Of a stretch of 63,602 nucleotides of DNA, positions 959 through 62,415 are shown in pieces (the first letter of the stretch is position 1; each line of letters begins with the position of its first letter). The position numbers and the translations under genes were made by a program. A model generated the notes under the pieces. That model was given only the letters and a program-made list of their open reading frames with translations. It did no database searches and was not told where the DNA came from. The stretch lies in contig CAZTXY010000004.1 in assembly GCA_964617815.1 (NCBI GenBank), positions 1 through 63,602 on the forward strand, in the 5' to 3' direction. The DNA comes from an uncultured Candidatus Saccharibacteria bacterium (GTDB taxonomy: Bacteria > Patescibacteriota > Doudnabacteria > UBA920).

Positions 959-991
959 ATGAAAGGCGGGACTCGAAGTTTCGAGTCCCGC

Positions 992-1630
992 TTAGGTCTG
1001 CCTGTGCAGATACTGTTGTCGTTGCCCCAGCTTCCAGCGGTACCATGGTGTGGTTCCGTTGGGGTCGAGGCGAACATCAAGTTGCTGAACAATTCGTTTG
1101 ACCAGGGCGAATCTTGAAAGCCTCTGCGAACTTGGCACAATTGTGACCATGGGGACTGCTCTGTAGTCACAAACCATTTTGTGCAAATGGTATTGCAACA
1201 GAAAGCTCATGATACTACCATGCCATTTTTCGGTGCAGATCACGTGCTCGCAATCTGGCGGAAAAATGCCGGCATGCTCCATCATATCGAGACCCATGGG
1301 GACATTCTCGCGTGAAGTCAGCGACCGACTCTCAACCATAATCTTTCGGTTATAGTGGGAGTGGAGCTCTGGGAAATTTTGATAGATGTACTCTTCCATC
1401 ATTTCCGTAACTCGCTTTTGTTTGCCCCACAAGTGAACGTCTCCAACAAGAATGATCGTGCTAATTTGCCGGTACTTCAGAGTACTGATAAACCGCATGC
1501 CCGCTTCTATGTTGGCGATTGTATCTGTCTCCAGCTTGTCCACGCGTGTGGACAGGCAAGGTATCCACACTGCGTAATGCATTTTCACCCCCGTGAAGTT
1601 TTCGAACTCGAACTTGCTATAGTAACACAT
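992..1630 (-). CDS. DUF218/YdcF-like protein (weak call), moderately GC-enriched gene
   Basis: 212-aa ORF. ILVGD...VTEMMEEYI...VESRSLTSREN...ICTEKWH loosely fits the YdcF/ElyC pattern (SEA..M, E..S..T.EN, H..R). GC is visibly higher than in neighbours. Confidence 0.4.
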   Translation of the reverse strand: MCYYSKFEFENFTGVKMHYAVWIPCLSTRVDKLETDTIANIEAGMRFISTLKYRQISTIILVGDVHLWGKQKRVTEMMEEYIYQNFPELHSHYNRKIMVESRSLTSRENVPMGLDMMEHAGIFPPDCEHVICTEKWHGSIMSFLLQYHLHKMVCDYRAVPMVTIVPSSQRLSRFALVKRIVQQLDVRLDPNGTTPWYRWKLGQRQQYLHRQT

Positions 1631-1669
1631 TTTTTTGCTTTGGTCAACCCATTTGTGTATACTCAGTGC

Positions 1670-2185
1670 ATGGACGTTTTAGCACACACACTTTGGACAA
1701 ACGCTTTGTTTCATTTGAAATATCACCAGGAAAGAAAACAGCGCTATATTGCCGCCGCCTTTGGTGTTGTCCCAGACCTAATTGGTTTTGTTCCAGTGAC
1801 TGTTTACGCTTTGTGGAATCGGTTGGTCTTTGACCCTTCTACTTATCAAACCTATAACCACTGGACATTTACCTATGCCACAGAGGCTTACAACTATACT
1901 CATAGTTTAGTAATTGCTGTGGCCGCAATTTTGCTTGTGAGGGCCTTTCGTAAAGGCAAACTTTACTGGCCAATGCTGGGTTGGGTTCTTCATATCGTTA
2001 TAGATTTCTTTACTCACCCGGATTTTTATCAAACCCCAATTTTCTTTCCTATTTCTAACTATCAAAACACTCACGGTATTTCCTGGGCTCACCCCGTGTT
2101 TATGGTGGTAAATTATAGTTTAATGGTAATTACATATATCATAATTTTTAAATATCGAGATAAACGAAAAATAGATGCAAAATAA
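1670..2185 (+). CDS. Membrane-bound metal-dependent hydrolase, YdjM/DUF457-like
   Basis: Internal ATG of track ORF 1355..2185. The upstream part of that ORF is antisense to 992..1630. Multi-TM protein with His-rich THSL/THPDF motifs. TTGCTT-N17-TATACT lies just upstream. Confidence 0.5.
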   Translation: MDVLAHTLWTNALFHLKYHQERKQRYIAAAFGVVPDLIGFVPVTVYALWNRLVFDPSTYQTYNHWTFTYATEAYNYTHSLVIAVAAILLVRAFRKGKLYWPMLGWVLHIVIDFFTHPDFYQTPIFFPISNYQNTHGISWAHPVFMVVNYSLMVITYIIIFKYRDKRKIDAK

Positions 2186-2645
2186 ATCCTTTTTTGTGAT
2201 TGCGCATAATATCCGTTCGATCCTCAATGTAGGGTCGATTTTTAGGACAGCAGATGCATTTGGGGTGACTAAGCTGTATCTGACAGGCTACACAGGCACG
2301 CCAAAGCATCCCAAGCTTTCAAAAACTGCTCTTGGAGCTGAGAATTTTGTTGCTTGGGAATACAACTTGTCTGCCAAGCGAGTTATTAGTAAATTGCGCA
2401 GGGATTATCCTGGGATTATTATTTTAGCTTTGGAAAACAACATCAAAGGCCGAAAGCCTTTGGTTATGACAAAATATAAATCAAAATTTCCCGTGGCTTT
2501 ATTATTAGGCGAGGAAACTAAAGGAATTCCAAAACCTTTGCTGAAAGAATGCGACCAGTTACTAGAAATCCCGATGCATGGCCAAAAAGAAAGTTTAAAT
2601 GTCTCCGTGGCTTTTGGCATTGCCGCCTACGTCATCTCATCATGA
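2175..2645 (+). CDS. SpoU/TrmH-family RNA 2'-O-methyltransferase
   Basis: NVGSIFRTADAFG, LLLGEETKGIP and LEIPMHG..ESLNVSVAFGIAAY are the SPOUT motifs. Confidence 0.8.
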   Translation: MQNKSFFVIAHNIRSILNVGSIFRTADAFGVTKLYLTGYTGTPKHPKLSKTALGAENFVAWEYNLSAKRVISKLRRDYPGIIILALENNIKGRKPLVMTKYKSKFPVALLLGEETKGIPKPLLKECDQLLEIPMHGQKESLNVSVAFGIAAYVISS

Positions 2646-2814
2646 TGGTCACCTTCATGACGGATTTGGCAAAATAAGGAAAACTTAGTGTAATACAGAC
2701 TCAAAACCAACAAAGTTTGGTTTTTGTTTTTATTCTGTGGATAGCTTTTTCTAACAAGAGGCAAGCATGCCTAATTCCCTTATGGTTATTAGGTTTTATT
2801 ATATTTTACAAGCT

Positions 2815-2843
2815 TTGACCAATGGGGGACGGTGGGATATAAT
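2815..2843 (+). promoter_or_regulatory. mraZ (dcw) promoter, TTGACC-N17-TATAAT
   Basis: -35 at 2815-2820 and -10 at 2838-2843, with an exact 17-nt spacer. Confidence 0.7.
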
Positions 2844-2899
2844 TACTTTGTAGTGGCAGAAAGTGGATAAAAGTGGGGAGAAGTGGTAGATTCAGTGGA
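2823..2899 (+). promoter_or_regulatory. Candidate MraZ operator: helically phased (A)AGTGG / TGGG direct repeats
   Basis: TGG(G) occurs at 2823, 2833, 2854, 2864, 2874, 2884 and 2896, so the spacing is mostly exactly 10 nt. The series overlaps and follows the -10 box. Confidence 0.55.
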
Positions 2900-2908
2900 T
2901 AACTACTT

Positions 2909-2953
2909 TAGTAGCTAGTTTCTAGAAACTAGTCACTAGCGACTAGGAACTAG
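2909..2953. repeat. Heptad array, 7 x TAGNNNN, ending 4 nt before the mraZ ATG
   Basis: TAG occurs at 2909, 2916, 2923, 2930, 2937, 2944 and 2951. Most units contain CTAG. Confidence 0.85.
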
Positions 2954-2956
2954 ATT

Positions 2957-3388
2957 ATGTTTATTGGCGAATACAGTGCAACAATTGATGACAAAGGCCG
3001 CATCGCCATCCCTGTTAAGTTTCGCAGCCAGCTGAAAAGCAAAGTTGTGATAACTAAGGGCTTAGATAACTCTCTTTTTTTGTTAACGGTTGACGAATGG
3101 AAAAAGCTTGCTGAAAAATGGGCTAGTCTCCCAATTTCTACTGCCAATGCGCGAGCTTTTTCCCGCCACATGCTTGCAGGGGCCATGGATTGCGACATAG
3201 ATAAACAGGGTCGGGTAATTGTGCCAGGGTACCTCAAAGAGTTTGCCAAGATTGGGAAGAAGTTGATTTTTGCTGGACTCTATAACCGTATAGAAATTTG
3301 GAGCGAAGAGTTGTGGGTTAAATACAAGGCGCAGACTGAGAAAGAAAGCAACGCCATAGCAGAACAGTTAGGAAGCTTGGGAGTTTAA
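2957..3388 (+). CDS. mraZ: Transcriptional regulator MraZ
   Basis: Two SpoVT/AbrB-like halves (DDKGRIAIP and DKQGRVIVP). First gene of the dcw cluster. Confidence 0.9.
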   Translation: MFIGEYSATIDDKGRIAIPVKFRSQLKSKVVITKGLDNSLFLLTVDEWKKLAEKWASLPISTANARAFSRHMLAGAMDCDIDKQGRVIVPGYLKEFAKIGKKLIFAGLYNRIEIWSEELWVKYKAQTEKESNAIAEQLGSLGV

Positions 3389-3394: not shown

Positions 3395-3466
3395 CTGTCA
3401 TTCTGAGTGAAACGAAGAATCTCTTGGGTTGGCAGTTTAGATCCTTCACTTCGTTCAGGATGACAG
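3395..3466. repeat. CTGTCAT-family element, complete (two inverted arms)
   Basis: ctgtcattctgagtgaaacgaagaatct ... agatccttcacttcgttcaggatgacag. It lies between mraZ and rsmH. Confidence 0.9.
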
Positions 3467-6705: not shown

Positions 6706-6742
6706 TGTCATTCCAGAAGCCACGAAGGGCTATGTGGAATCT
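6706..6742. repeat. CTGTCAT-family arm (solo)
   Basis: tgtcattccagaagccacgaagg...ggaatc. It matches the reverse complement of the right arm at 40430-40455. Confidence 0.7.
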
Positions 6743-8326: not shown

Positions 8327-8350
8327 GCGATTTTTTGATATGCTGTATTT

Positions 8351-8917
8351 ATGACTGAAAAAAATCTTAATCCTGAATTGAAAAAAAGGCAAATAATGCT
8401 TTCTGAGGCTGTGACTGAAGATGCTCCTAAAATTGCAGAATTGCGTAAAATTACTTGGCTTGATACTTATGTTGGTGGAAGAAATAATATAACCAAAGAA
8501 GATATTCAAGCTAAGGATTTTGACAGTCCTGAAAAAATCGAAAAGATCGAGCATTTTATTAATGACGTATCTGGGAAAACTAAAACATGGGTAGCTAAAG
8601 AGGGTGATAAGGTAGTTGGCTATTGCGCATCGTCTAAAGATGGACAGTATGAAATTCGCGCTATATATGTTCTTCCAGACTATCAGGGTCTGGGAGCGGG
8701 CAAAAATTTAATGCAGGAAGCGATGCAATGGCTTGGTGGTGACAAAGATATTCACCTGTATGTTGCAGATTATAATTTAGATACGATTGAGTTTTATAAA
8801 AGTTTAGGATTTGTTGTGACCGATGGTAAGGTTCCAGAAGGATACGCGGTTAATGGAAAAGATATACCGTTAGTTAAAATGACTAAATTTAATAACAGCG
8901 ATAAATCAAATCAATAA
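8351..8917 (+). CDS. GNAT-family N-acetyltransferase
   Basis: IYVLPDYQGLGAGKNLM matches the acetyl-CoA motif (Q/RxxGxG/A). Confidence 0.8.
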   Translation: MTEKNLNPELKKRQIMLSEAVTEDAPKIAELRKITWLDTYVGGRNNITKEDIQAKDFDSPEKIEKIEHFINDVSGKTKTWVAKEGDKVVGYCASSKDGQYEIRAIYVLPDYQGLGAGKNLMQEAMQWLGGDKDIHLYVADYNLDTIEFYKSLGFVVTDGKVPEGYAVNGKDIPLVKMTKFNNSDKSNQ

Positions 8918-8919
8918 TT

Positions 8920-9336: not shown

Positions 9337-9414
9337 AATTTTAAGAATTTATATCTAAACAAAAGCTCCCACCGTGCGGGTACAGGGGGAGCTGAGGGGC
9401 GCTAGAAGCGCGGG

Positions 9415-9642
9415 TCATTTTTCGGTGTTGAGGCTTTCATTCTTGTAGAGCTTGTAAGCCACAAACATGACGGCGACGACGCCGAGTGTCATCAACCCGG
9501 GAACGTGTGCTCTGTCGATTGGGTCAATGATGAGCGACACATCATGGATGAGTGCGACCACTAACGATATGAGTAGCACGATTGCTATCCGAACGTTGGT
9601 GCGCTTGTCTGCTCGCGACTCTCTGGTGTTCACTTCTTGCAT
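9415..9642 (-). CDS. Small two-TM membrane ORFan in a GC-enriched islet
   Basis: 75-aa ORF with two hydrophobic helices. A GC-rich hairpin (agctccc...gggagct, 9364-9392) lies downstream. Confidence 0.4.
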   Translation of the reverse strand: MQEVNTRESRADKRTNVRIAIVLLISLVVALIHDVSLIIDPIDRAHVPGLMTLGVVAVMFVAYKLYKNESLNTEK

Positions 9643-9776
9643 CTGTCCTCCTGAACTAAGCCAAAAAATTATACTCTTTATATGGGTTTTGTCAATGTTT
9701 CGGCTAAATGAATCGCAGGCGAGGCCAATATTTGCTATTATTAGGACACCTTTATTATTAGTGTTCTATTTTTTAT

Positions 9777-17042: not shown

Positions 17043-17070
17043 TTTTAAATTTAAGCTATAAAATGACATT

Positions 17071-17100
17071 GACCCGATTCTCGCAAGCGAGAATCGGGTC
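17071..17100. terminator. 12-bp hairpin at the left edge of GC islet A
   Basis: gacccgattctc-gcaagc-gagaatcgggtc. It sits between convergent genes. Confidence 0.55.
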
Positions 17101-17125
17101 AAGTTTATGAGGACATTTTTCACCC

Positions 17126-17332
17126 TTACTGAACAGGTGCGAACCTTCCGGGATTCAGGATCTCCCAAAGTCCGGCGCGAGTCAGCTCGAGAGGCTGACC
17201 TTGTCCAATCTGGACAAGGCGGGTGGGGCGTTCGTGGGCACGCTTCCAGTTCACTGATTCGAGAAACTCTCCAAAGTTCGCCCTCGTGACTTCAGTGAGA
17301 TCGACAGTTATGATGTCCCTTTCGGAATTCAT
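17126..17332 (-). CDS. GC-rich ORFan, 68 aa
   Basis: AAGGAGG lies 4 nt upstream of the ATG at 17332. A candidate TTGCAA-N17-TAAACT promoter lies upstream. It is the internal start of track ORF 17126..17635. Confidence 0.5.
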   Translation of the reverse strand: MNSERDIITVDLTEVTRANFGEFLESVNWKRAHERPTRLVQIGQGQPLELTRAGLWEILNPGRFAPVQ

Positions 17333-17410
17333 AGGTCCTCCTTCTTGACTATCGACAGGATTTTGCTCAAGTTTAACTGAAAGCCTGACTTTTTGCAAGC
17401 AAAGAGAAAA

Positions 17411-17454
17411 GGCGAGCTGTGTCGGTAGCGGTAAAAACCGAACACTAGCTCGCC
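17411..17454 (-). terminator. Terminator of the 116-aa/54-aa gene pair
   Basis: ggcgagct...agctcgcc long stem followed, on the minus strand, by TTTTCTCTTT. Confidence 0.6.
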
Positions 17455-17477
17455 TTTTGGTCGCCGCCTGAGCTGTC

Positions 17478-17642
17478 TCAGGCGGCCGAAACTGAATCCT
17501 CCGTGTCGTTGTCGATTGCGACTCCGCAAACCGTGCAGCAGCCGCTACCCGAGTTGCAGATGTCGCAGAAGTCTGTGCCACACTCGTCGCAGTGGTACTT
17601 GTCGGCACCAGTGTTGCGGCATGATACGCATTCATCCAGCAT
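17478..17642 (-). CDS. GC-rich Cys-rich ORFan, 54 aa (four CxxC-type pairs)
   Basis: MLDECVSCRNTGADKYHCDECGTDFCDICNSGSGCCTVCG. The ATG is 8 nt after the upstream stop codon. A hairpin overlaps its stop codon. Confidence 0.5.
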   Translation of the reverse strand: MLDECVSCRNTGADKYHCDECGTDFCDICNSGSGCCTVCGVAIDNDTEDSVSAA

Positions 17643-17650
17643 CAGCGATT

Positions 17651-18001
17651 TTATTGCTTTCGCCACATGGCCTCCATGCCCTGCATGAGCAGGGTATTCT
17701 TGACCCACACAACGGTTGTGGGCTTGAGTTTTCCCAAGTCCACGACGTAGGTGCTCGTGGGTCTTTCCAGACGGACGAACGAGTGAGTTGCTGGCTCCTC
17801 GTCGCGTTCCAGCAGGATCTGCTGGACCGTGACTTTCACGGTCCCAAGCAGTTTCCTGAGTTTCCCGCGGTCGATGCTCGAGAGCTCCTCGCTCGAAGCA
17901 TCGAATGTAAGCTTGTCTTTCCCGAATGAGAGCTCAAAGGCTCCGTCTGCGAGCTCGGAGAGCTCCCCTGGGCCGGCGACGCTTCGTGTTTCCATCGCCA
18001 T
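17651..18001 (-). CDS. GC-rich ORFan, 116 aa
   Basis: AAAGGAGA RBS, AT-rich host-like upstream region, GC3-rich codons. Confidence 0.5.
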   Translation of the reverse strand: MAMETRSVAGPGELSELADGAFELSFGKDKLTFDASSEELSSIDRGKLRKLLGTVKVTVQQILLERDEEPATHSFVRLERPTSTYVVDLGKLKPTTVVWVKNTLLMQGMEAMWRKQ

Positions 18002-18126
18002 CTCCTTTTTCCGAGTTTCTGTCCTGCGCTCAACAAGTAAAGCATAAAAGCCTATAATTTAGGCGTTACTTGCTAAACACAGTCACATAATATAGAATTA
18101 AAACATATTTTTTAAATATTGTCAAT

Positions 18127-26770: not shown

Positions 26771-27373
26771 ATGAAAACCAAAGACGCAAAGGTCGAGCTG
26801 GTGAGGGTTGCGCCAAGCCTACAAAGTGCTGTTCGAATGGCAGCGCTTGGTTTTGTGAAAGAAGAGTCTGTGATGTCAGTCGAAGATGTGGAATCCCATT
26901 TGAAGAGTGGTGAGTTGATATACCACATCTTTGTTGGCAAAAGCGAAGCAGGGTTTGCGATCTTCGCAGTATGCGACGACATTCTCTACTTGTCTGGAAT
27001 AATCATTATTCCAGAGTTTCAGAGTATGGGAATTAACGGGTTGGCTGTACAGCAAGCAAGATTGCTTTATCCGCAGTGCAAGTACTTGGCGCTTCGGACA
27101 CAAAGTTTGAGAATGTACTTGGCCGCATCACGACTGTGTCGGGAATTTTATCCCACAGTCGAGAATCTGGGCATTCCGGAAAACTTTGCAAGTCGTGGTC
27201 ACCAGGTGGCCAAAATGATTAATTCAAAATTTCCTGTACACCAGGGTTGTTATGGTGGCCCTTTGTACGGAACTAAACCTGGCTACAAGGATAAGCGACT
27301 GCAAAATCTCTGGGACGAGCTTTGCAATTTTGAAAGAGGAGACGCGATAATTTTTATCGGCATGCTCCTGTAG
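26771..27373 (+). CDS. GNAT-like acetyltransferase, GC-enriched
   Basis: GIIIIPEFQSMGINGLAVQQA resembles the GNAT motif A. Strong AAAGGAGG RBS. GC is visibly higher than the flanks. Confidence 0.45.
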   Translation: MKTKDAKVELVRVAPSLQSAVRMAALGFVKEESVMSVEDVESHLKSGELIYHIFVGKSEAGFAIFAVCDDILYLSGIIIIPEFQSMGINGLAVQQARLLYPQCKYLALRTQSLRMYLAASRLCREFYPTVENLGIPENFASRGHQVAKMINSKFPVHQGCYGGPLYGTKPGYKDKRLQNLWDELCNFERGDAIIFIGMLL

Positions 27374-32317: not shown

Positions 32318-32959
32318 TTATCTAGCCCCTCTGGGGCCGGGAGCAAATTCTTGCACCTCTATGCCCAGGGCTCTGAGCCGTCGCTTGAAGACGGGTCGCC
32401 AGTTGGCGTTTATTTTTGCATCTGGGTAGACTGCAAAAAGTTTGATCTGTGCCGCTTCTTGAGTGTGGCACCCTTCTGCAATCACGAAGTCGAGCGCTTG
32501 GGTTAGTGAGTGAAATTGGGTTGGCAAACTAGCAGAGTCGTCGCTGGTCTTGAATGTTCCCAAAATTTCGAGCATGGTTTGTTCGAAGAAAGTCGTAGGA
32601 ATTTCTTCACTCGACAATCTCTCTGGCTTCTCTCGTGGCGTTTCTTTGAGCCAGCGGAATTGTCTTAGCTGACTTTCCATCGAGTCAGCGTTCTTTACCG
32701 AAATGACTTCGGCGTGATTGTTTCGGGCGGCTTGGGCAACAAGCCAACTGTAGTCTTGTCCTTCCACACTCTCCTTGTTAATCACCACAGACCTGACCTT
32801 TTTTGGGAGGTCATGTTTGTGGAGCTGCATTTGGACCATGAAGGCCAGCGTCATGAAGTCGAACTTCTCGACATCGCTGAATTCTTCCTTAAGAGTTGCG
32901 AGGTTATCCTGCGAGTCTACTACCAGGACAACACTTCCAGCTTTGAGAAACTTTGTCAC
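32318..32959 (-). CDS. ORFan, 213 aa, GC-enriched islet B
   Basis: GTG start 4 nt after GGAGG. No recognisable motif. It has its own promoter and terminator. Confidence 0.45.
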   Translation of the reverse strand: MTKFLKAGSVVLVVDSQDNLATLKEEFSDVEKFDFMTLAFMVQMQLHKHDLPKKVRSVVINKESVEGQDYSWLVAQAARNNHAEVISVKNADSMESQLRQFRWLKETPREKPERLSSEEIPTTFFEQTMLEILGTFKTSDDSASLPTQFHSLTQALDFVIAEGCHTQEAAQIKLFAVYPDAKINANWRPVFKRRLRALGIEVQEFAPGPRGAR

Positions 32960-38992: not shown

Positions 38993-39021
38993 TTGACAAG
39001 ACTAGTTATTTATGGTATTCT
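38993..39021 (+). promoter_or_regulatory. Promoter TTGACA-N17-TATTCT of islet C gene
   Basis: Host-like AT-rich promoter and ~110-nt leader precede the GC-rich ORF. Confidence 0.65.
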
Positions 39022-39135
39022 ATGAGATTAAAACTTTTGCAGGAATAATTGTGGTTATTAAGTTGGTTTAGTTGCCACGATCATTCCCGCAATAGTGGGA
39101 AGCAGATTCGAATTTTTTGGTGTGAGAGGTACGAG

Positions 39136-40083
39136 ATGGAGATGATGACGACCAAGCGCCTTGTCATCGTTGGAAAGAATCACAAGCCGCTCCATGGAGC
39201 GGCCCTCAGCGCGCGCGAGCGCAAGATCAAGAGCAAGCTCGAAACTCTCCGAGCTGAGGGTGTGAGCTACACCACCTCGGAAGGCTGGGAGATCGAAAAG
39301 GCAGAGAAGGCGCGCAAGCGTTTGCTCGCGCAGAATCCGCCGTGTGGGAAGTGCCACGAGAATACGCCGCAGGCGGAGCTCGAGGGCAACGAAGGCTGGT
39401 GCTACGATTGTCGGGAAGCCGACAATCAGCGCTTGGCCGAAATCGAGCGTGCTGGCAAACAGCGGCTGGCCGACATCGAGTGGGCGAAGGTCATCGAGGC
39501 GTCGAAGCGGCCCTGCAAGGGCTGCCAGACGCGGATCGAGCCGTTCGCCTACAAGAATGGCAAGGGATTTTGCAATGCGGACTGCAGGTCGCAGTTTCGG
39601 GCAAACAAGCTCGAAGCCGAGCGTCTCGCGGTCATCGAAGCGAGCAAGGAGCCTTGCTCGGAGTGCGAGCAGCGTTTCATCCCCGAGGACCTTAAGTTCG
39701 GCTGGTGCGTGTCCTGCAAGGATGCACTCACTGCCGGACAGTTCGCATCCTGCGAGGGATGTGGAAAGCGTCACGGATACAGCGAGCTCGAGACCATCGA
39801 GATCAGCGGTGTCGAGCGCATGATCTGCATCAACAACGACGACTGTCTCGAGCTGGCATTCAGCCCGAAGCTCGAGCCGGCACATACTGTTGCTGAGACC
39901 GCGACTCCCGCGGTGACCATCGCGAAGAGGAAACTCCACGCGATGATCACGTACGGCGTCAGCGAGGATGGGCGCCCCAACAACCGGCGCAAGCCCAAGG
40001 TGCCGAAGTCGGCGCGCAAGAAGGGCACCAAGCCGCAGGAAAGCGGCAAGAAGGGCAAGGGCAAGGCCGCCTCCGGCGGCTAG
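39136..40083 (+). CDS. GC-rich ORFan: repeated CxxC zinc-ribbon-like modules plus Lys/Arg-rich tail (315 aa)
   Basis: MEMMTTKRL start after GAGAGG. Four CxxC-x(9-25)-C..C modules, two preceded by IEASK(R/E)PC. C-terminal KPKVPKSARKKGTKPQESGKKGKGK tail. One line counted by hand gave 63% GC. Confidence 0.55.
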   Translation: MEMMTTKRLVIVGKNHKPLHGAALSARERKIKSKLETLRAEGVSYTTSEGWEIEKAEKARKRLLAQNPPCGKCHENTPQAELEGNEGWCYDCREADNQRLAEIERAGKQRLADIEWAKVIEASKRPCKGCQTRIEPFAYKNGKGFCNADCRSQFRANKLEAERLAVIEASKEPCSECEQRFIPEDLKFGWCVSCKDALTAGQFASCEGCGKRHGYSELETIEISGVERMICINNDDCLELAFSPKLEPAHTVAETATPAVTIAKRKLHAMITYGVSEDGRPNNRRKPKVPKSARKKGTKPQESGKKGKGKAASGG

Positions 40084-40141
40084 CAAACAAAATTCCCAGG
40101 AGGGAAACGAAAAAGGCGAACGAGCGGTCTGACGTGCTCGT

Positions 40142-40175
40142 ACCCAGTTGTCATTGACGGCTGGGTTTTTCTTTT
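40142..40175 (+). terminator. Terminator of islet C gene
   Basis: acccag...ctgggt stem plus TTTTTCTTTT. Confidence 0.7.
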
Positions 40176-40177
40176 AT

Positions 40178-41650: not shown

Positions 41651-41983
41651 ATGCCAGGAAGTACTTATCACTCTGCAAGTGCGCATCGTTACGTTGAGCC
41701 GTTTCTCAACATGGCCAAACTGGTCATTGAGAGTTTGCATGACGGGCGAACGTTTCAGATTCTTTCGCCTACAGAACAGAGCGACAGCTGGTATCTCAAT
41801 ATCAGGTATGTAACCAAGAACATCTCGGGCGTTTGTGTACAGTTGGACCCAGGGATCACCGGTTTCATTGTTGGAAGCAAGTATGCTTCGACAAGCCGGC
41901 TTGTTCAGAGCCCAGAAGAGGTTTTGGAGGAGATTCTGCAGATTGAAGAGTACTTCGCATCTCTTAGATTCTGTGGACAATAG
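41651..41983 (+). CDS. Islet E small protein, paralog 1 (110 aa)
   Basis: AAGGAGG RBS. The VEPF..M..VIE....F.I..P....SW.L.I pattern is shared with 42013. Confidence 0.5.
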   Translation: MPGSTYHSASAHRYVEPFLNMAKLVIESLHDGRTFQILSPTEQSDSWYLNIRYVTKNISGVCVQLDPGITGFIVGSKYASTSRLVQSPEEVLEEILQIEEYFASLRFCGQ

Positions 41984-42012
41984 TCACCTTGGAATCTGCA
42001 CGGAGGTGCAAA

Positions 42013-42327
42013 ATGGAAACAGACATTGAGCCTTTCCGGGAGATGGTTTGGATTGTCATCGAACGCTTTGCTCTAGGGCGGGTGTTTGGGATAGTGCCCC
42101 CTAGTCCGGAAACTGAGACTTGGTTACTTCAGATTATGTCAGCAACTCCAGGCGATTACGATATCGCTGTCGAGTGGAAGTCGGACGATAGACACTTCTT
42201 CGTTCGCTGTGGTTACGATTCAGTTTTTCGCCATGACAATGCCATAGTCCTAAAAACATCGGCGGAAGTCGTGGCGGCCATCGAACTAATCCATAGTCGC
42301 AACAAGTTCATTAGGCGTTCCTCTTAA
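42013..42327 (+). CDS. Islet E small protein, paralog 2 (104 aa)
   Basis: ATG after the TGCACGGAGGTGCA hairpin-RBS. IEPFREMVWIVIERF...TWLLQI...IAVEWKSD. Confidence 0.5.
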   Translation: METDIEPFREMVWIVIERFALGRVFGIVPPSPETETWLLQIMSATPGDYDIAVEWKSDDRHFFVRCGYDSVFRHDNAIVLKTSAEVVAAIELIHSRNKFIRRSS

Positions 42328-42366
42328 GGGCGCATGAGTTCATTTGGCTATATCTTTGGAGGTAGC

Positions 42367-42702
42367 ATGAGTAAAGAGGAAAGACCCGCTGTTGTCGTTG
42401 AGCTTTTGGAAAAGATTTCAAAGGCTTTTCCCGAGGCTCGAGTCGAGGTAGACGAACCCAAGGATTTCCAGACAGGTTTCTGGTTTGTGGATGTTTACCT
42501 TGGCGAATTCCTTGTGGTCGTGGAGTGGCGGCCAAACCAAGGCTTTGGTTTGAGGATGATTCGTGGTGATGAAAGGTTTGGAGTTGGTCCTGACTGCGCA
42601 TTTCCATCAATCGACGAGTCGCTGTCACTGATGACAAAGATGTTTAGCGGTAACTACACCCGTCTGCGCGAAGGTGATGATGACAGCCCACTAATCCAGT
42701 AA
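42367..42702 (+). CDS. Islet E small protein, paralog 3 (111 aa)
   Basis: GGAGG RBS. FWFVDVYLGEFLVVVEWRPNQGFG aligns with paralog 2. Confidence 0.5.
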   Translation: MSKEERPAVVVELLEKISKAFPEARVEVDEPKDFQTGFWFVDVYLGEFLVVVEWRPNQGFGLRMIRGDERFGVGPDCAFPSIDESLSLMTKMFSGNYTRLREGDDDSPLIQ

Positions 42703-42775: not shown

Positions 42776-43051
42776 GTGGACATTACTTGGATTGTTGGTA
42801 TGCTTGCCGTGGCGGTGACACTGCTTGGGACTGCTGGTGGTTATGCATCCCAAGTCTGGAAGAATTATCGAAACAAGAGTACGGAGGGGCTCTCGTGGTT
42901 TACCTTCGCCTCGCTCTTGCTTTCGCATTCCGTCTGGTTTGCGTACGGTGTTTTAGGAGGAGACTGGTTTCTGATCATCGCCAACATTCCCGGCGTGCTT
43001 TGTATGACCATCATCCAGGTGCAGTGGTGGTGGTACAAGGTCAGAGGGTGA
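42776..43051 (+). CDS. SemiSWEET / PQ-loop family 3-TM transporter
   Basis: 91 aa, GTG start after a second TGCACGGAGGTGCA hairpin-RBS. GYASQVWKNYRNKSTEGLS...W..YG...N motif. Confidence 0.65.
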   Translation: MDITWIVGMLAVAVTLLGTAGGYASQVWKNYRNKSTEGLSWFTFASLLLSHSVWFAYGVLGGDWFLIIANIPGVLCMTIIQVQWWWYKVRG

Positions 43052-43183
43052 TCAAATTTCGTGGCCGGAGTTTCGTGTTCAAAAGAACACAAAACTCCGG
43101 CTTTTCTGTTATTATAAACCCTTGCATTTTTGGACAATTATGCTATCCTAACAAGTCTTCGAAATTTCGGTGGAGAGGTTTTC

Positions 43184-44383
43184 ATGAGAAAAGAACCGGC
43201 TGTGTGCCTCGTGTTCTCGGAAAACCTGCTTCATGCAGATTTTCCAAGGCTAAGTTTGAATCGATGGCTGGATACAGAGTTAGTGCGAGTTCTGCGGGTT
43301 TTGCGTAAAATTCCGTGTTCAGTTTCTGTGGAAGGTTTTGACTCAGAGATATGCCCGGATCTTGCAAGATTCATTGCAGACTCTGGCAAAGCAGAAGTTA
43401 TTAGTCAGGAGTATGCTCACGTGTTCTCTGGCTGGTTGCCTTCTGAAATCGCGCTACATAACCTTTCCCAGTCATCGCATTCCGTTTGTTTTACGGCGGA
43501 GTACAATCCGCCCAAGACCGATGTGCTGGAAGCGTTGGGGGCTAAAAGTGGTGGAGAGCAAAGAGCCTTTTTTGTTCTCGACAATCAAAGCAGGATGTAT
43601 TCCTTGGCGGATTCTCCATCGCTGTCTTTGCCGCTCCGTTACAGTCTGCCAGAGAATGTTAACGCCCTCGAGCACGCAGGTAGCTTGATGCTCCTGATGC
43701 GCTACGAATACTTCCGGCCGGTGTTGAGCGAATGGTTCTCCTACCAGCGCTCTTTTGATCTCCCGGTCGCTTGTGTGATTGGTGAAATGGAAAGACAACT
43801 TCGCAAAGCACGAAACAACAAGGTGCCAGTAGTGTTTATCCCCATTGATATCGAAGCGTGCATGATCGGTTCACACCGTGGTGCAGAGGTCTTCGAAGAG
43901 ATTGTGGAGGCACTTTTGGCTTCTGGGATCCCACTCATTGGACCAACCGAGGCTTTGGGGATCCTTGCTCCGAATGCAGTTTCTGGCCCGCGTCCAGACC
44001 GGTCACTGAAGAAGTGGCTTGGTTACGGACTTCAGCTTCAGTTGCTGGAAGACTTACAGGCTACGACTTTGGTGACAAACTGGCAAAGCTTGAGCAGCTT
44101 TGAGCAAAAACTGTTTCTGCTTGCATGGGGCTCTGATGCCTTTGCAGTGCTTGAGTACCACTCTGGAACGCCGAGGCTTGTGGTACAGACCGAAGCAGAG
44201 CCGCTTCTAATCGGCGGAGCGAGCGAAGACTCGTACGCCATTAGCCGTGCCGCTTTGTACTATCACCAACTCGGGCTTTCCCCAGTTGAGAGCCTGAAAA
44301 ACTATCAAGAGGAACGCGGCACAAGCCGCCTGCTCGAACTCGTCCTCTCGTGGATGACGAGCGAAAGTGACATTGGCCCCTGA
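43184..44383 (+). CDS. Hypothetical 399-aa protein with weak GH57-like motifs
   Basis: GGAGAGG RBS. GWLPSE, PIDIEA...GSH and WGSDAF are reminiscent of GH57 regions III-V. This is motif-level only. Confidence 0.4.
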   Translation: MRKEPAVCLVFSENLLHADFPRLSLNRWLDTELVRVLRVLRKIPCSVSVEGFDSEICPDLARFIADSGKAEVISQEYAHVFSGWLPSEIALHNLSQSSHSVCFTAEYNPPKTDVLEALGAKSGGEQRAFFVLDNQSRMYSLADSPSLSLPLRYSLPENVNALEHAGSLMLLMRYEYFRPVLSEWFSYQRSFDLPVACVIGEMERQLRKARNNKVPVVFIPIDIEACMIGSHRGAEVFEEIVEALLASGIPLIGPTEALGILAPNAVSGPRPDRSLKKWLGYGLQLQLLEDLQATTLVTNWQSLSSFEQKLFLLAWGSDAFAVLEYHSGTPRLVVQTEAEPLLIGGASEDSYAISRAALYYHQLGLSPVESLKNYQEERGTSRLLELVLSWMTSESDIGP

Positions 44384-44412
44384 TTACTTCGGTAGTTGGG
44401 GGCCTTATTGTT
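44375..44412 (+). terminator. Hairpin at the right edge of islet E
   Basis: ggcccc...ggggcc stem overlapping the stop codon, then TTATTGTT. Confidence 0.6.
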
Positions 44413-44416
44413 ATAA

Positions 44417-53000: not shown

Positions 53001-53605
53001 AAGTAACTGTTAACGCTACTGCCACTTCTGTTATTCAAAACATTGCCCGAGCCACAGGTGACGGTGTTAGCCAAGTACAAGACGATGCCTTTGTCTATGT
53101 TAACAGCGGTAATACCAATGTAACCTTGTCCAAGAAAGCTTGGAATGATACTAAGAATGTGAACGCTCAAAGCACACACGCAGACCGCGAAAATTATATC
53201 ACCTATACCCTTATGGTTACCAACAGTAACTCTACAGCGGTCAATAACTTTATAATTACAGACGATCTTTCCGGAGTATTACCATTAGCAGATATGGTTG
53301 AGCTTGGTGGTGGTTTCCTTTCTGGAAATGTCATTAGCTATCCAGCCATTACTATTCCAGCAAATGGTTCTGTAACCAAAACTTTTAAAGTTCGTGTTAA
53401 GTACCACTTAAATACTACACAGAGTTTTACAATGGTGAATACCTACGGTAACACTGTGACTATTAACATTCCTGGCAACACTCCTTTTGAAGCTCCAAAA
53501 ACTGGAGCTAGTGGAACAAGTGCTATGGTCTTTGGTGGCTTACTTTCTTCTGGTCTTATGCTTTGGCGCAAGCGCCGCGAGATCATGAGTTTGATTCTTG
53601 CTTAA
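50054..53605 (+). CDS. Giant cell-surface protein: DUF11-type repeats, 5 tandem Ig-like repeats, LPXTG-like (APKTG) anchor
   Basis: N-terminal TM/signal segment. VEYRI.V.N.G..NV.L.D DUF11 motifs occur 4 times. C-terminal APKTG, then a hydrophobic stretch, then RKRRE. Confidence 0.8.
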   Translation: MTFIKSLFARTNLFGSRKASRSFAVLAVLAVTAGLLIIPQASDRAQSVECPNPPTNATLNPYPVQWYPGGALCKDFPAIVGRNVTRGQHYPTSQAEQNSGVTATSGEEIDVQMYLHNGAANNLPQDQTDATNVRITTSTPTSVGSNHTISVSMVGTRANGNPTNTVSGSFTVHTGANERLEIVPNSGERYDSSNNLEQSGFSMGNNTVTVNRLRACFEYAKFFRYTVRVVSDAGQLNLTKDVRNVTQNDTSFADTTNANTNDVVEYRINVSATNGNLTNVTLRDVGVSGIAFIPGTLRVNGGLGSGTLNPAISLGNINSGQTDIINYQARVTAGAGTYVNTATATSGSLTDSDTATVIVSQVVNPVVCNPSTQTVNVNQNANFTATGGNGTFSWQASGGTPANGSGSSFSTRYTTSGTKTVTVTSNGQSDSCAVIVNQIVNPVVCNPSTQTVNVNQNANFTATGGNGTFSWQASGGSPSAGNGSSFSTSYNTSGTKTVTVTSNGQSDSCAVIVNQIVNPVVCNPSSQTVDINQNANFTATGGNGTFSWQASGGTPANGSGSSFSTRYTTSGTKTVTVTSNGQSDSCSVIVRDIPQVFCSPSSQTVDLNENAFLSATGGNGTFSWQASGGTPSTGSGSTFQTSYPVSGTKNVTVTSGTRTANCTVIVRQPQINSVVCNPLSQTVNIGQPANFTATGGNGTFSWQASGGSPSTGSGSSFSTSYNASGSRTVTVTSGNTSDSCQVLINQNQGYLSIDKSVRNFTNSGNFSSSIEVENNTTVEYRILVTANGGNVNNVRLLENLPSQLTLVSGSVRLDNTTISDNFSNSSISLGTMTSGQTRTLTFRAVARAISGQSQTVINNTAIASGDNTPSVSDSATVTIRQLIGTCCKQLAITKQVRNVTTGTSFQNSVQAANADRVSYEVIVSNVGTETVFNVQLTDALPGLLSLDNSSIRVDGNQFPTGNNLINLSLGTLNVGQQKRITYEVTVNATATSVIQNIARATGDGVSQVQDDAFVYVNSGNTNVTLSKKAWNDTKNVNAQSTHADRENYITYTLMVTNSNSTAVNNFIITDDLSGVLPLADMVELGGGFLSGNVISYPAITIPANGSVTKTFKVRVKYHLNTTQSFTMVNTYGNTVTINIPGNTPFEAPKTGASGTSAMVFGGLLSSGLMLWRKRREIMSLILA
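51134..52290 (+). repeat. Five tandem ~231-nt (77-aa) coding repeats
   Basis: VVCNPSTQTVNVNQNANFTATGGNGTFSWQASGG...TVTVTS...SC.VIV units. Repeats 1-3 are near-identical and mosaic. Repeats 4-5 are diverged. Confidence 0.9.
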
Positions 53606-55125: not shown

Positions 55126-55153
55126 TGTCATCCTGAACGGAGTGAAGGATCTC
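55126..55153. repeat. CTGTCAT-family arm
   Basis: tgtcatcctgaacggagtgaaggatctc. Confidence 0.85.
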
Positions 55154-59473: not shown

Positions 59474-59535
59474 CTGTCATCCTGAACGCAGTGAAGGATC
59501 TCTGCAGAGATTCCTCGACAAGCTCGGAATGACAG
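59474..59535. repeat. CTGTCAT-family element, complete
   Basis: ctgtcatcctgaacgcagtgaaggatctc tgca gagattcctcgacaagctcggaatgacag. Confidence 0.9.
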
Positions 59536-59610
59536 TGAGAAGTAAGGACGAGAGTAAAAGATACGTTAAATACTGTAAAATTATAGCAAAATAAGCCAAT
59601 TTAGACAAAT

Positions 59611-59654
59611 GAAAAAGGGATCGTGAGCATACAGCGGTATGACACTAATCCCTT
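59611..59654 (-). terminator. Terminator at the left end of island F unit 3
   Basis: aagggat...atccctt stem with an inner catac/gtatg stem, followed on the minus strand by TTTTT. Confidence 0.6.
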
Positions 59655-60979
59655 TATCGGTTTGGCCCGTTTTGATATAGGCCTTAACAATTGTCCTCTA
59701 TTTGGTTGTTGTCGGCGGGCTGTGCCCGCCGACTGCCCAATCGTGGGCTGCTGACCATCGATCGACCGCCACAGATTGCTCCGTGGACATGTCTGCGAAG
59801 GTCTCGTTCACCTTCTGTATGCGTGGATTCGGGCCACACGCCCATCCCGGCTATTCATTTGTCCCGCGTGCCCTGGCACTCATGGCCAGGGGCTTTCAAG
59901 ACGTACCGGTTTAGGTCCGGCAACCATCGTGTCAGTCAGTCGAAGGTTCTTGGCAAATGGCCTACCGGCTTAGAGGGCCGGAGCTAAATGCCGTGACGAT
60001 TTTAACATGTCGACCTCCTGCCATCTCTGGTTGGAGTTTGCCCGAGGCGACGGAGCGGGGAACATAGCCCCACCCCGCGCCTGAGGCATGCCCGTTTCCG
60101 GGCCAATGGTGGCCTTCGTCGGATCCAATGGGCCACCGGTCGCGCGTCGGATAACTACAAGGGAGCCGACGCACTCCTCACGCCCTGCCGCCTTTACTAC
60201 TCGCCGGGCGACAGTCATTCCGGCCACAGCCTGCCAATTGCAAACTCCCCTCGAGAATGCTTTTGGCAGACTGCAACGCGCCGGATTCGCAAAAAAAGTA
60301 CTACTTACTAACACTAACCTTGATAACGCTCGTTATCACCACGAGCGGGATGGCGATTATCCGTTCGCTTCGGGTTCTTTCGGCCGTCTGCCCAATGTGT
60401 GGGCTTGGCGAGGCTAGAAATCGAGCTCACTTCTGTCGGTCTGTGACCTGTCGAGTGATGCTAGATCTAGCGGTTTCGCCTTTTCCTTTGCGGCCTAGAG
60501 GTTTGTGGCTTTCGCCTTCGTCGTTGTGCCGCCAGAGACTGAAATCAATGGCGGATGAGCAGAGGCATCTGCCTCATTTCTACCTCCATTTCCGTCAGTA
60601 GGGGGGACCGACACACCAACCCTCCTTGAGGGGTTGTTTGTTGGTGTGCTCCCGAGTGGGCAAGCGCACTGGTAATGGTTGCTCCGTTCTCTGGAGACAT
60701 TGACCAGTGCAGGCGGTAGCCGCCCCAGCATTGCTAGGGTGGCGTTCCCGAAACGGGATTCGCCATGATATCACCTCGCCCGTATCGCTGGGCCAGCGCG
60801 GTGAGCCGTCATCGATCGCTCGAAGTGGATGGGGATGTTGTCATCCCGCCGGCGCGACAGTCTGTCGCGTCGAATCCGTCTTCTTAGCGGTGCGAGAACG
60901 CGCTCGCCAGAGAGGCAATTCATGCACTCAGCAACGGCTGAGCGCTCTTCGTCGCGGTCGCCGACCCGATGCCGTGGGT

Positions 60980-61084
60980 CTAGCGGCCGACGCGCATGCC
61001 GACGCAGCTGCCGTCGTCGATCGTGACGAGGCGATTTTCTTTCAACATGTTGAGGGGCGTTGCCGCCCGGTACTGGTTCTTCAT
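60980..61084 (-). CDS. Mini-ORF, 34 aa, first cistron of unit 3
   Basis: GGAGG-caac-ATG. Peptide MKNQYRAATPLNMLKENRLVTIDDGSCVGMRVGR. A perfect 16-nt palindrome (cctcgcctaggcgagg) lies just upstream. Confidence 0.25.
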   Translation of the reverse strand: MKNQYRAATPLNMLKENRLVTIDDGSCVGMRVGR

Positions 61085-61323
61085 GTTGCCTCCGCATCCT
61101 CGCCTAGGCGAGGAAATCGAGGTTCGCGTCAGGACTTTGCCTGACCGCGAAACACACTGAGAAAAAAGAACGAACTTGCTATCGGTGTTGTCGCACTACG
61201 AATCAAAAAGGCAAAACCTCTTTAATCGTCGTAGTATACGAGGCAACAAAAAAGTAATTAGTGAAAGTAGCTTTCTTGAAACTAATTATTTTTTTACTGC
61301 CCCTATACAAAACATAATTTCAT

Positions 61324-61352
61324 ATATTAGCAAATATTATAGCTTTTGTCAA
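61324..61352 (-). promoter_or_regulatory. Promoter TTGACA-N17-TAATAT (unit 3)
   Basis: -35 at 61347-61352 and -10 at 61324-61329, read on the minus strand. It lies in the AT-rich spacer inside the island. Confidence 0.65.
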
Positions 61353-61399
61353 GTACCATTCTAAAATGCTGAAAATGCTTATTTATAAGGTAAAAGGAA

Positions 61400-61421
61400 G
61401 GCCGACACAGTTGCGTCGGCC
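61400..61421 (-). terminator. Terminator of unit 2
   Basis: ggccgac-acagttgc-gtcggcc stem, followed on the minus strand by TTCCTTTTA. Confidence 0.6.
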
Positions 61422-61715
61422 TCTGAAACAGGGTCCACCGAATCGGTGCGAAGCTCATCGAACGAACGTGCTAACGAACGGCCGTCGATGGTTTGATGTT
61501 GGTGGAGCCCAAAGTGATAATCCCTCCGAGGAATTGTGTGGTTCCGGGTTACGGAACCTGAGTGGTGAAGTGGCACAGGGCTTGAGCTAAGAGAGTTAGC
61601 CCTAGGCGCCTATAGTGGCCCAGATGCGGGAGTCCGCAGATCCAGGCCCGTGGTTCGCCGCGTCGCAAATCCGGGGCAACTCAAGTTCCGAAAATGCAAC
61701 CGACGAATGTCGAGA
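61422..61715 (-). ncRNA. Candidate structured 3' region of unit 2
   Basis: ~290 nt of GC-rich sequence between the 68-aa ORF stop and the terminator. Hairpins include agggct...agccct and ggttccg-taac-ccggaacc. No plausible ORF. Confidence 0.3.
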
Positions 61716-61922
61716 TTACAGCAGCCGAAGCGGCCGCTTGTCGACGCTATCGCTCCCAAGAACATCTTGGATGAAGCTCCAGCGCCCCTCACGTCGGCCC
61801 CCGAACTTGGGTGGAACTCGATTCACACCTTTTTCGGTGGTTCCAGGCCTGTCTTGGCCTGGATGAGTGTCGTCCGATGCCGGGACTTCAGTGTCCGGCG
61901 CAGTTGCAGTCGCATTGCTCAT
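61716..61922 (-). CDS. ORFan, 68 aa, disordered-looking (unit 2)
   Basis: TTGACA-N17-TAGTAT promoter, with AAGGAG 7 nt before the ATG. Peptide MSNATATAPDTEVPASDDTHPGQDRPG...RWSFIQDVLG. Confidence 0.4.
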   Translation of the reverse strand: MSNATATAPDTEVPASDDTHPGQDRPGTTEKGVNRVPPKFGGRREGRWSFIQDVLGSDSVDKRPLRLL

Positions 61923-61948
61923 CTGCGTTCTCCTTTGTGACTTTCAAC

Positions 61949-61977
61949 ATACTACAGCTTTTGTTATGTTTTGTCAA
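61949..61977 (-). promoter_or_regulatory. Promoter TTGACA-N17-TAGTAT (unit 2)
   Basis: -35 at 61972-61977 and -10 at 61949-61954, read on the minus strand. Confidence 0.65.
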
Positions 61978-61986
61978 CGTAACGGG

Positions 61987-62023
61987 AGACCCCCAACGGA
62001 GGGGAATCTTCCGTTGGGGGTCT
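61987..62023. other. 13-bp perfect hairpin between unit 1 terminator and unit 2 promoter
   Basis: agacccccaacgg-aggggaatctt-ccgttgggggtct. Confidence 0.7.
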
Positions 62024-62033
62024 TGGGAATGCG

Positions 62034-62087
62034 AGAAAAAAAGCAGCGCTGAGTCACTCACCGGTAAAGGTGACGTGACTCAGCGCT
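62034..62087 (-). terminator. Strong terminator of unit 1 (13 plus 5 bp stem, T-run)
   Basis: agcgctgagtcac(tcacc...ggtga)gtgactcagcgct, preceded on the plus strand by an A-run. Confidence 0.85.
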
Positions 62088-62380
62088 TAAATGCAGGGCA
62101 GTTTAGAGTTGGGCGACTCAGGTTAGCCCTGGTTGGCGTTTAGGAGGCCCAAACGCCAAACAAAATTCCTCCAGTCATGAAATGTTAAACCCTTCGACCG
62201 TGCCACCGTACGCATGATCGAGGCCTTCGCGGGGTTCACCGCAAGCCCATCCTGGGCTCGCAGAGTTGCTTTCTTGGTTTTGGATATTTGTTGGTGTTAA
62301 TATCCTGCCTTCAGGCGGATCTTCTTTAACCATCTTAGTTGCAGTATCTGGCAATGTTTTTCTCCTTCTTGTATTCAAGT
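62088..62380 (-). ncRNA. Candidate ~300-nt transcript (unit 1), coding status unclear
   Basis: It lies between the promoter at 62387-62415 and the terminator. Internal 9-bp hairpin ttggcgttt/aaacgccaa (62132-62158). The only ORF (track 62175..62378) lacks an RBS and looks non-protein-like. Confidence 0.3.
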
Positions 62381-62386
62381 CGAGTC

Positions 62387-62415
62387 ATGGTAAGGTTTTT
62401 TTCGACTTTTGTCAA
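62387..62415 (-). promoter_or_regulatory. Promoter TTGACA-N17-TACCAT (unit 1)
   Basis: -35 at 62410-62415 and a weaker -10 at 62387-62392, read on the minus strand. Confidence 0.45.

Follow-up and report, generated by a model that had tools for sequence, protein, structure and literature searches.

The window analysed here, the whole 63.6-kb stretch of contig CAZTXY010000004.1, is a segment of a bacterial chromosome with an overall GC content of 41.1%. It carries the housekeeping genes dinB, mnmA, rplJ-rplL, aspS, and lexA and three tRNAs, and its closest public relatives are metagenome-assembled genomes (MAGs) of the Patescibacteria (Candidate Phyla Radiation, CPR) labelled Saccharibacteria or Doudnabacteria, with AspRS identities of at most 80-82% beyond a small sibling group. 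A 300-nt GC profile and a 120-nt scan (median GC 40%, 99th percentile 62.5%) located eight GC-rich islets in this low-GC background, referred to as A to H, four of them strong (C, F, G, and H) and four weaker (A, B, D, and E). The islets are real and far beyond chance, and we lean, if only slightly, toward the view that they are old, fixed, and constrained lineage-specific accessory cassettes of probable, unproven foreign origin. Their compositional extents are:

17060-18005, strong islet C, 50-59% GC
39074-40188, strong islet F, 59% GC
41628-44436, strong islet G, 47-55% GC
59614-61220 and 61364-62342, strong islet H, 54-58% GC (56-58% when taken as one 3-kb islet; ordinary spacers, 36%)
916-1620, weak islet A, 46-51% GC (a range given for A, B, D, and E together)
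9343-9666, weak islet B, same range
26771-27373, weak islet D, same range
32218-32941, weak islet E, same range

Taken together, the scans place the four strong islets at 50-62% GC. A sequence-only reading of this DNA had described at least eight islets at about 50-67% GC with a GC-rich codon choice; the eight it listed are all present and stand out in the sliding-window scans, but half of them (A, B, D, and E) reach only 46-51%. The codon claim is borne out: relative to 53 core genes, in which GC at third codon positions (GC3) is 0.328 ± 0.050 and peaks at 0.47, 13 of 13 islet open reading frames (ORFs), as re-called, are outliers (GC3 0.49-0.81, z = 3.2-9.6). They range from F (0.81, z 9.6) through C1 (0.73), C2 (0.71), B (0.64), G4 (0.63), A (0.60, z 5.5), C3 (0.58), E (0.55, z 4.4), G5 (0.54), and G1-G3 (0.50-0.52) to D, the weakest (0.49, z 3.2). 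Further, GC at first and second codon positions (GC1 and GC2) is elevated too in F, C, and G5, and the GC-normalised dinucleotide signature of F and C exceeds the 95th percentile of equal-size core segments.

By prediction, each islet is a self-contained unit: a sigma-70 promoter of the host type and an AT-rich leader precede the GC-rich body, which ends in an intrinsic terminator. Host-like promoters with TTGACA -35 boxes lie ahead of B, C, and F, much as the earlier reading had it, at a spacing of 17 in C and F and 16 in B, and terminator hairpins were found at the bounds of these three islets and also of G and H. The same reading had seen no integrase, transposase, or att repeats, and both the domain scans and the repeat search agree: no integrase or transposase domain was detected in the window ORFs scanned (Pfam, NCBIfam, PHROGs, and PADLOC among the scans), and no flanking direct repeats were found around the islets. 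The PHROGs and PADLOC scans of the window gave nothing meaningful, and none of the tRNAs (at 7113, 23785, and 55255) adjoins an islet.

A sibling species has the four strong islets at the same loci, and its nucleotide identity to the window is about 85% in islets and flanks alike. Between the window and the sibling, synonymous divergence (dS) of the flanking core genes is 0.5-1.2, except for rplL, and the ratio of nonsynonymous to synonymous divergence (dN/dS) of F and G2-G5 is 0.15-0.30, indicating purifying selection, with GC3 equal in both species. In distant relatives, C, F, H, and G1-G4 are absent and the flanking core genes are adjacent; these islets were thus gained in the lineage of the window and its sibling, in spacers that are variable hot spots.

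Islet F, which has the highest GC3, lies in the spacer between the DUF218 gene and rplJ:

38993..40170, plus strand, islet F, whole unit, between the DUF218 terminator and the rplJ promoter
38993-39021, plus strand, predicted promoter (TTGACA-17-TATTCT), followed by a structured leader
39136-40083, plus strand, F ORF, 315 aa, with 16 invariant Cys and a Lys/Arg-rich tail
about 40119-40170, plus strand, terminator

Among 5.8 billion proteins, F matches only itself and one 79%-identical sibling, from which it has diverged by 21% of its amino acids at a dN/dS of 0.26 with all 16 Cys kept. A sequence search against PDB gave no match, and the AlphaFold2 (AF2) model built from a two-sequence alignment (pLDDT 47) is too low for use. 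The Cys-rich products noted earlier are indeed there, as the 16 invariant Cys of F and a 54-aa Cys-rich protein in islet C; their zinc-ribbon character is a prediction, under which F may act as a Zn-ribbon nucleic-acid-binding protein. The locus is occupied likewise in sibling contigs L079 and L082. A family-level relative, L084, is without F and has a DUF218-rplJ spacer of 240 bp. Also in the 5' region of rplJ, at 40205-40359, there is an L10-leader-like element (36.6 bits against an Rfam gathering threshold of 44), which is kept in L084 and L079.

Islet C appears to be an operon of three small ORFs:

17060..18125, minus strand, islet C, whole unit
about 18097-18125, minus strand, promoter (TTGACA-17-TTTAAT, read from the sequence)
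17651-18001, minus strand, C1, 116 aa
17478-17642, minus strand, C2, 54 aa, Cys-rich
about 17400-17470, minus strand, internal terminator
17126-17332, minus strand, C3, 68 aa
about 17060-17100, minus strand, final terminator

The islet is found at the same locus in sibling L088, with an identity of 64-97% per 100 nt, and in distant relatives without it the genes g16044 and mnmA are only 79-960 bp apart. The small proteins of C and G are taken as ORFans from four negative profile libraries, whose coverage is partial for some of these proteins, and those of C also from their absence at the relatives' syntenic loci. The spacer between C2 and C3 (17300-17500, with the terminator hairpin and the C3 leader) is 91-97% identical to the sibling, as compared to 64-88% for the adjacent coding sequence, and this conserved non-coding spacer may be a regulatory RNA element.

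Islet G follows the rplL terminator and consists of two parts:

41651..42702, plus strand, islet G part 1
41651-41983, plus strand, G1
42013-42327, plus strand, G2
42367-42702, plus strand, G3
42776..44410, plus strand, islet G part 2
42776-43051, plus strand, G4, SemiSWEET/PQ-loop-like, 91 aa, followed by a terminator
43184-44383, plus strand, G5, GH57-like, 399 aa, followed by a terminator

G1, G2, and G3 are paralogues of about 110 aa with 13-33% identity and a common W...VEW motif, and are thus the triplicated small-protein family recognised earlier; they are present in siblings L080-L083 at 42-79% nucleotide identity and absent in L084. G4 and G5 had been passed over as featureless ORFans, which they are not. 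G4 has a sub-threshold match to the NCBIfam family SemiSWEET_2 (NF037968) at 38.8 bits (E = 7.6e-10; curated cutoff 80), a member of its cluster is named 'PQ loop repeat', and the sibling gene has a weak Pfam PQ-loop match on record. For G5, neither Pfam, NCBIfam, nor PDB gave a sequence match, and a PDB profile search was also empty. Its AF2 model (pLDDT 89.4), instead, finds glycoside hydrolase family 57 (GH57) structures as the best Foldseek matches (1ufa, 1k1x, 7e1y, and 5wu7; E 5.6e-9 to 5.2e-7, template-modelling (TM) score 0.54-0.58), so that the model predicts a GH57-type (beta/alpha)7 barrel. The G5 family alignment has invariant E, D, and H residues. The family has 17 representatives among 1.84 billion proteins, those examined being all in Patescibacteria, and a profile search with five G5 sequences for further loci recovered only the two already known. 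Together, G4 and G5 look like a predicted module for sugar uptake and processing. A 21-nt repeat, TGCACGGAGGTGCAAA(A/G)TGGA, occurs at 41997-42017 and 42760-42780 and places the ribosome-binding sites (RBS) of G2 and G4 in the loop of a small hairpin.

Islet G also bears on how the GC-richness has lasted. A two-state amelioration model was calibrated on 2,837 core four-fold sites (GC at four-fold sites (GC4) 0.31; mismatches between strong and weak bases (S/W) 0.268). If amelioration had been neutral since the split, the model would require F to have started from a GC4 of 1.10, C1 from 0.98, and G4 from 1.03, and the islet S/W mismatches observed are 0.06-0.24, as compared to a neutral expectation of 0.32-0.39. 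Sibling contigs L080 and L082 are 98.6% identical, and a three-taxon polarising of the synonymous changes therefore fails. There are two ways out, either active maintenance of the GC-richness or later exchange between siblings. Maintenance is supported by G5 in L084, where the gene order is DUF218-rplJ-rplL-G5-CYTH, with neither F nor G1-G4: the core four-fold sites between the window and L084 are saturated (X = 0.047), and the G5 ortholog nevertheless has a GC3 of 0.66 and a GC4 of 0.62 versus about 0.36 for its neighbours and the core. Later exchange is supported for G4-G5, since this tract is about 93% identical to the sibling with sharp edges, in flanks of 68-78%, and it seems to have passed from one sibling lineage to another in one piece.

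Islet H fills the spacer between aspS and the RNaseH-like gene, where three minus-strand TTGACA-17 predicted promoters with matching terminators delimit putative units of about 1.7 kb (H1), about 0.55 kb (H2), and 0.15-0.35 kb (H3):

59612..61352, minus strand, H1, whole unit, with an AT-rich leader carrying a terminator-like hairpin
61324-61352, minus strand, H1 promoter (TTGACA-17-TAATAT)
60980-61084, minus strand, conserved 34-aa micro-ORF of H1
59612-59653, minus strand, H1 terminator, at the end of a GC-rich, non-coding body of about 1.35 kb
61395..61977, minus strand, H2, whole unit, with a variable 5' half
61949-61977, minus strand, H2 promoter (TTGACA-17-TAGTAT)
61430-61660, minus strand, H2 core, 230 nt, 90-100% identical to the sibling
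61398-61423, minus strand, H2 terminator
62028..62415, minus strand, H3, whole unit, ending in a 13-bp hairpin and T-run
62387-62415, minus strand, H3 promoter (TTGACA-17-TACCAT)
62181-62373, minus strand, H3 insert, 192 nt, window-specific and missing in the sibling, with a possible 59-aa ORF
62028-62185, minus strand, conserved candidate multi-hairpin RNA of H3, about 150 nt, core 94% identical to the sibling

The sequence-only reading had assigned this islet no product. Instead, H is non-coding, and its pattern of conservation and folding suggests that it is structured. Codon periodicity is absent except at the 34-aa micro-ORF; of 23 indels relative to the sibling, 19 have a length not divisible by 3, and blocks of 90-100% identity alternate with blocks of 40-65%. 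A 68-aa ORF in H2 (61716-61922) is not conserved in the sibling, whereas the micro-ORF of H1 keeps its RBS, start, and stop there; its middle is hypervariable, and a 12-nt indel leaves the frame intact. The fold z-score of H2 is -6.4 on the minus strand, as compared to -2.5 on the plus strand, and that of H3 is -8.4. Over the 3' 650 nt of H1, for which three distinct sequences could be aligned, 166 pairs are predicted with 96% of cells paired, and 10 pairs carry compensatory double changes, where slid controls have 0-3 and shuffles 3.9 ± 1.5 (0/500 reach 10), which favours a conserved structure in a suggestive rather than conclusive way.

A search of H against 4227 Rfam families gave no match at the gathering threshold and none relevant at E <= 1, nhmmer against all relatives' loci found no remote homologs, and the aspS-RNaseH spacers of 13 relatives share no RNA with it. 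A metagenome search with the H1 pattern returned nothing, and one with the H2 pattern returned three more contigs of the same sibling only, so that the covariation power remained at three sequences. Distant relatives also have aspS next to the RNaseH-like gene in divergent orientation, but over a gap of 80-2760 bp with unrelated content, versus 3068 bp here. In our literature search, no non-coding RNAs (ncRNAs) of this kind were found described in Patescibacteria. The thermophile-style idea that the GC-rich islets are simply known RNA genes was considered and rejected, as Rfam gives three tRNAs and the sub-threshold L10 leader, and most islets are clearly coding. It is possible, though well short of probable, that H comprises three undescribed structured RNAs, including one of about 1.7 kb with a 5' hypervariable micro-ORF of 30-34 aa, and that islet GC-richness is actively maintained by RNA structure selection or GC-biased gene conversion (gBGC). 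If the GC-richness is indeed maintained in this way, the GC islets of low-GC Patescibacteria would mark accessory RNA and protein modules that belong to one functional class.

Several further observations concern the same spacer. Within H1, a micro-ORF of 14-15 codons at 60545-60592 reads MEVEMRQMPLLIRH in the window and MEVTMGYCMPLLIRH in the sibling, with an in-frame 3-nt indel; its preservation may be a coincidence. The start of the RNaseH-like gene (about 11 codons, MLKKIVLDLET...) is duplicated 103 nt upstream (62455-62492 and 62558-62595). The upstream duplicate opens a short ORF (62458-62568), has a similar copy in distant relatives L004 and L006, and might encode a leader peptide or mark an old insertion. 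In the distant relative L025 (4383-7142), the aspS-RNaseH spacer contains an ORF for a DUF559-like endonuclease, a GC-rich ORF of 116 aa whose hydrophobic N-terminus resembles a signal peptide, and GC-rich repeats translating as '...GEGWG...', and this hot spot thus carries unrelated cargo there.

The four weaker islets each contain a single ORF:

992..1630, minus strand, islet A, 212-aa ORF, GC 0.49, GC3 0.60
9362..9698, minus strand, islet B, whole unit (promoter, ORF, and terminator)
9670-9698, minus strand, islet B promoter, a perfect TTGACA-16-TATAAT
9415-9642, minus strand, islet B 75-aa ORF with two hydrophobic stretches
about 9362-9405, minus strand, islet B terminator (hairpin and T-run)
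26771..27373, plus strand, islet D, 200-aa ORF, GC3 0.49
32318..32959, minus strand, islet E, 213-aa ORF, GC3 0.55

The ORFs of A, D, and E have no match in Pfam or NCBIfam. On the plus strand, ORF 1355-2185, which overlaps islet A, is genuine only from about 1670, the start of its YdjM domain. We read the 75-aa product of B as a putative membrane protein; at this locus the sibling L087 has a different 87-aa minus-strand ORF that does not align to B. A TTGAAA-16-TATAAT sequence lies about 180 nt upstream of islet D, and an AAGGAGG ribosome-binding site precedes the GTG start of E. Relatives of D at >=90% identity are present in JGI metagenomes, and E has one JGI cluster member at >=90%.

Among the alternatives, the one that survives best regards the islets as native genes and RNAs, specific to the lineage and fast-evolving, whose GC-richness is intrinsic and actively maintained, whether through RNA structure or stability, codon choice, or gBGC at hot spots. 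It would accommodate the GC-richness that G5 shows at one locus in two lineages with saturated synonymous sites, the equal GC4 of the siblings with S/W mismatches below the neutral expectation, and H RNAs that are GC-rich because they are structured. The lack of a donor anywhere searched, and the fact that the islet-holding spacers are variable hot spots in relatives, agree with it as well. However, C, F, H, and G1-G4 are missing at the syntenic sites of distant relatives, and F and C are atypical in GC1, GC2, and dinucleotides, which synonymous-site selection would not produce. Further, the highly expressed native rplL and rplJ are GC3-poor, and the G5 homolog in L086 is not GC-deviant. We consider this explanation unlikely, while giving it some weight.

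The sequence-only reading itself had proposed repeated capture of small cassettes, with a GC-rich host, a partner organism, or the mobile elements of either as the possible source; it is weighed here as recent capture. The GC3 of up to 0.81 and the atypical dinucleotide signature would suit such an origin, as would the G4-G5 tract being less diverged than its flanks and a neutral fit that permits islet alleles younger than the split (ancestral GC4 0.84-0.92 for F and C1). Yet all traceable islets (C, F, G, and H) are shared with the sibling at an identity close to that of their flanks, and F has accumulated its amino-acid divergence under constraint, so that presence in the sibling species largely refutes recency. 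As for the source, no homologs of F and G5 were found outside Patescibacteria contexts in 5.8 billion or 1.84 billion proteins (for G5, among the representatives examined), scans of viral contigs (IMG/VR among the collections) for F, C1, and G5 found nothing, and BLAST of H, F, and G5 against phage and plasmid records showed no similarity, leaving the proposed host, partner, or mobile element without a candidate. The same reading held that repeated capture would be unusual in such a streamlined genome; horizontal gene transfer (HGT) and genomic islands are, however, common in Patescibacteria, with up to 13% of a genome's length ascribed to HGT (PMC12455944). Overall, recent capture is quite improbable.

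There is next to no chance that the islets are assembly or binning artefacts, i.e., GC-rich contaminant fragments chimerically joined to a low-GC contig, given that Logan contig L077 is 100% identical through both F junctions, that the gene order through C, F, G, and H recurs in at least five independent assemblies from other samples (ENA, Logan, and JGI), and that host-type promoters and terminators are predicted precisely at the boundaries, even though three independent sibling contigs, L087, L089, and L090, end in the boundary hairpin of islet C (window about 17076-17090). Contigs identical to the window come from read sets SRR8893622/3, and the sibling species is represented in SRR21621035-37. 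Islet edges seem to be systematic assembly breakpoints, due to a coverage drop at GC-rich or hairpin sequence or to strain heterogeneity.

We return, then, to old and fixed accessory cassettes, which would comprise single genes, small operons, and three candidate ncRNA genes of a Patescibacteria genus, with a proposed role as regulatory or scaffold RNAs for H1-H3. Under this reading, C, F, H, and G1-G4 would have been inserted into core-gene spacers before the window and sibling species split, most likely from the GC-richer DNA of an unsampled donor. The likeliest route would be DNA uptake followed by illegitimate or homology-facilitated recombination, without any integrase. Purifying selection would since have kept the islets at fixed loci, and their GC-richness would not have decayed toward host composition. 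The foreign origin claimed earlier is thereby kept in part: deviant composition and the empty sites in distant relatives speak for it, and the absence of a donor speaks against it.

Several points weigh against this reading. The databases searched yielded neither a donor nor an out-of-lineage homolog for any of the islet products, so composition and patchy distribution are all that argue for a foreign origin, and a concatenated protein search with C1-C3 and G1-G4 missed even the known self and sibling sequences and is thus uninformative. G5 is ancestral and syntenic, with no insertion within the resolved time frame; the sequence-only reading had regarded GC-rich genes conserved in synteny across related low-GC genomes as a refutation of its proposal, and G5 is such a gene, being both syntenic and GC-rich in L084. 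A neutral fit is possible with islet alleles whose coalescence dates to 10-50% of the core split age, which would mean later exchange between siblings, and the amelioration model has two states, assumes stationarity, and draws on small site counts in short genes. Besides, gene order around gene 30118-32346, searched as a way to date D and E, is not conserved in relatives, and synteny is lost there for A as well, so that the traceable depth covers C, F, G, and H.

A streamlined CPR genome can thus show striking islands of deviant composition without recent host-to-symbiont capture being the cause. Two points are of particular interest, namely that the GC-richness persists and that there is a candidate RNA cluster, for which the comparison covers two or three lineages. 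Persistence of GC beyond neutral amelioration bears on how base composition is maintained in AT-biased bacterial genomes, and the G4-G5 pair points to a small, exchangeable module for sugar handling in a metabolically minimal organism.

Elsewhere in the window, a family of short palindromic repeats with the core GTCATTC...GGAATGACA is spread over intergenic spacers and 5' leaders, including sites just 5' of rplJ, just 5' of gene 10476, and beside the aspS start. It looks like a miniature inverted-repeat transposable element (MITE) or a repetitive extragenic palindromic (REP)-like element, with copies at:

40376-40457, 10446-10524, 59475-59540, 47071-47102, and 29958-29987
3439-3466, 55126-55153, 6706-6725, and 12717-12732

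At 50054-53605, a protein of 1183 aa carries DUF11-type repeats and an LPXTG anchor and is probably a surface protein; its gene has internal DNA repeats about 75% identical and an unusually high GC2 of 0.51. At 8341-8919, the window has a 188-aa ORF where sibling L087 (1252-2464) has a SET-domain gene and a 253-aa ORF, a case of accessory turnover without a GC shift.

The islets share features with several known systems. The genomic islet concept reportedly goes back to Hacker and Kaper. Like such islets, those described here are deviant accessory segments between core genes, patchy among relatives; they differ in being very small (0.3-3 kb), without integrase, tRNA adjacency, direct repeats, or detectable donor, and in being shared and constrained across species with a GC-richness that is not ameliorating. 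In terms of genomic islands in general, composition deviates as expected, C, F, H, and G1-G4 (unlike G5) are absent from syntenic sites of relatives, and mobility hallmarks and an identifiable donor are lacking. The phage 'morons', a notion said to stem from Hendrix and Juhala, are likewise single genes or small operons of deviant composition with their own promoter and terminator, set between otherwise adjacent genes, and the predicted autonomous promoter-gene-terminator arrangement of the islets agrees with this. Instead of a prophage, however, the islets are located in a bacterial chromosome among rplJ/rplL, aspS, mnmA, and DUF218, with no meaningful PHROG match and no viral relatives. At the protein level, the G5 model superposes on the (beta/alpha)7 barrel of GH57 enzymes, at a TM of only about 0.55 and with no sequence-level match, and G4 resembles SemiSWEET transporters as a 91-aa PQ-loop protein whose profile score is below the cutoff.

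Large structured bacterial ncRNAs include OLE, GOLLD, and ROOL. Searching GC-rich intergenic regions (IGRs) finds structured ncRNAs in AT-rich bacteria (PMC6429828, PMC8632094, PMC11109978). Similar to RNAs found in this way, H is long, GC-rich, and intergenic in an AT-rich genome, with its own predicted promoters and terminators, strong fold z-scores, mosaic conservation, and compensatory changes. It differs from them in having no Rfam family, in being restricted to one genus-level clade with three distinct sequences, and in the conserved micro-ORF carried by H1.

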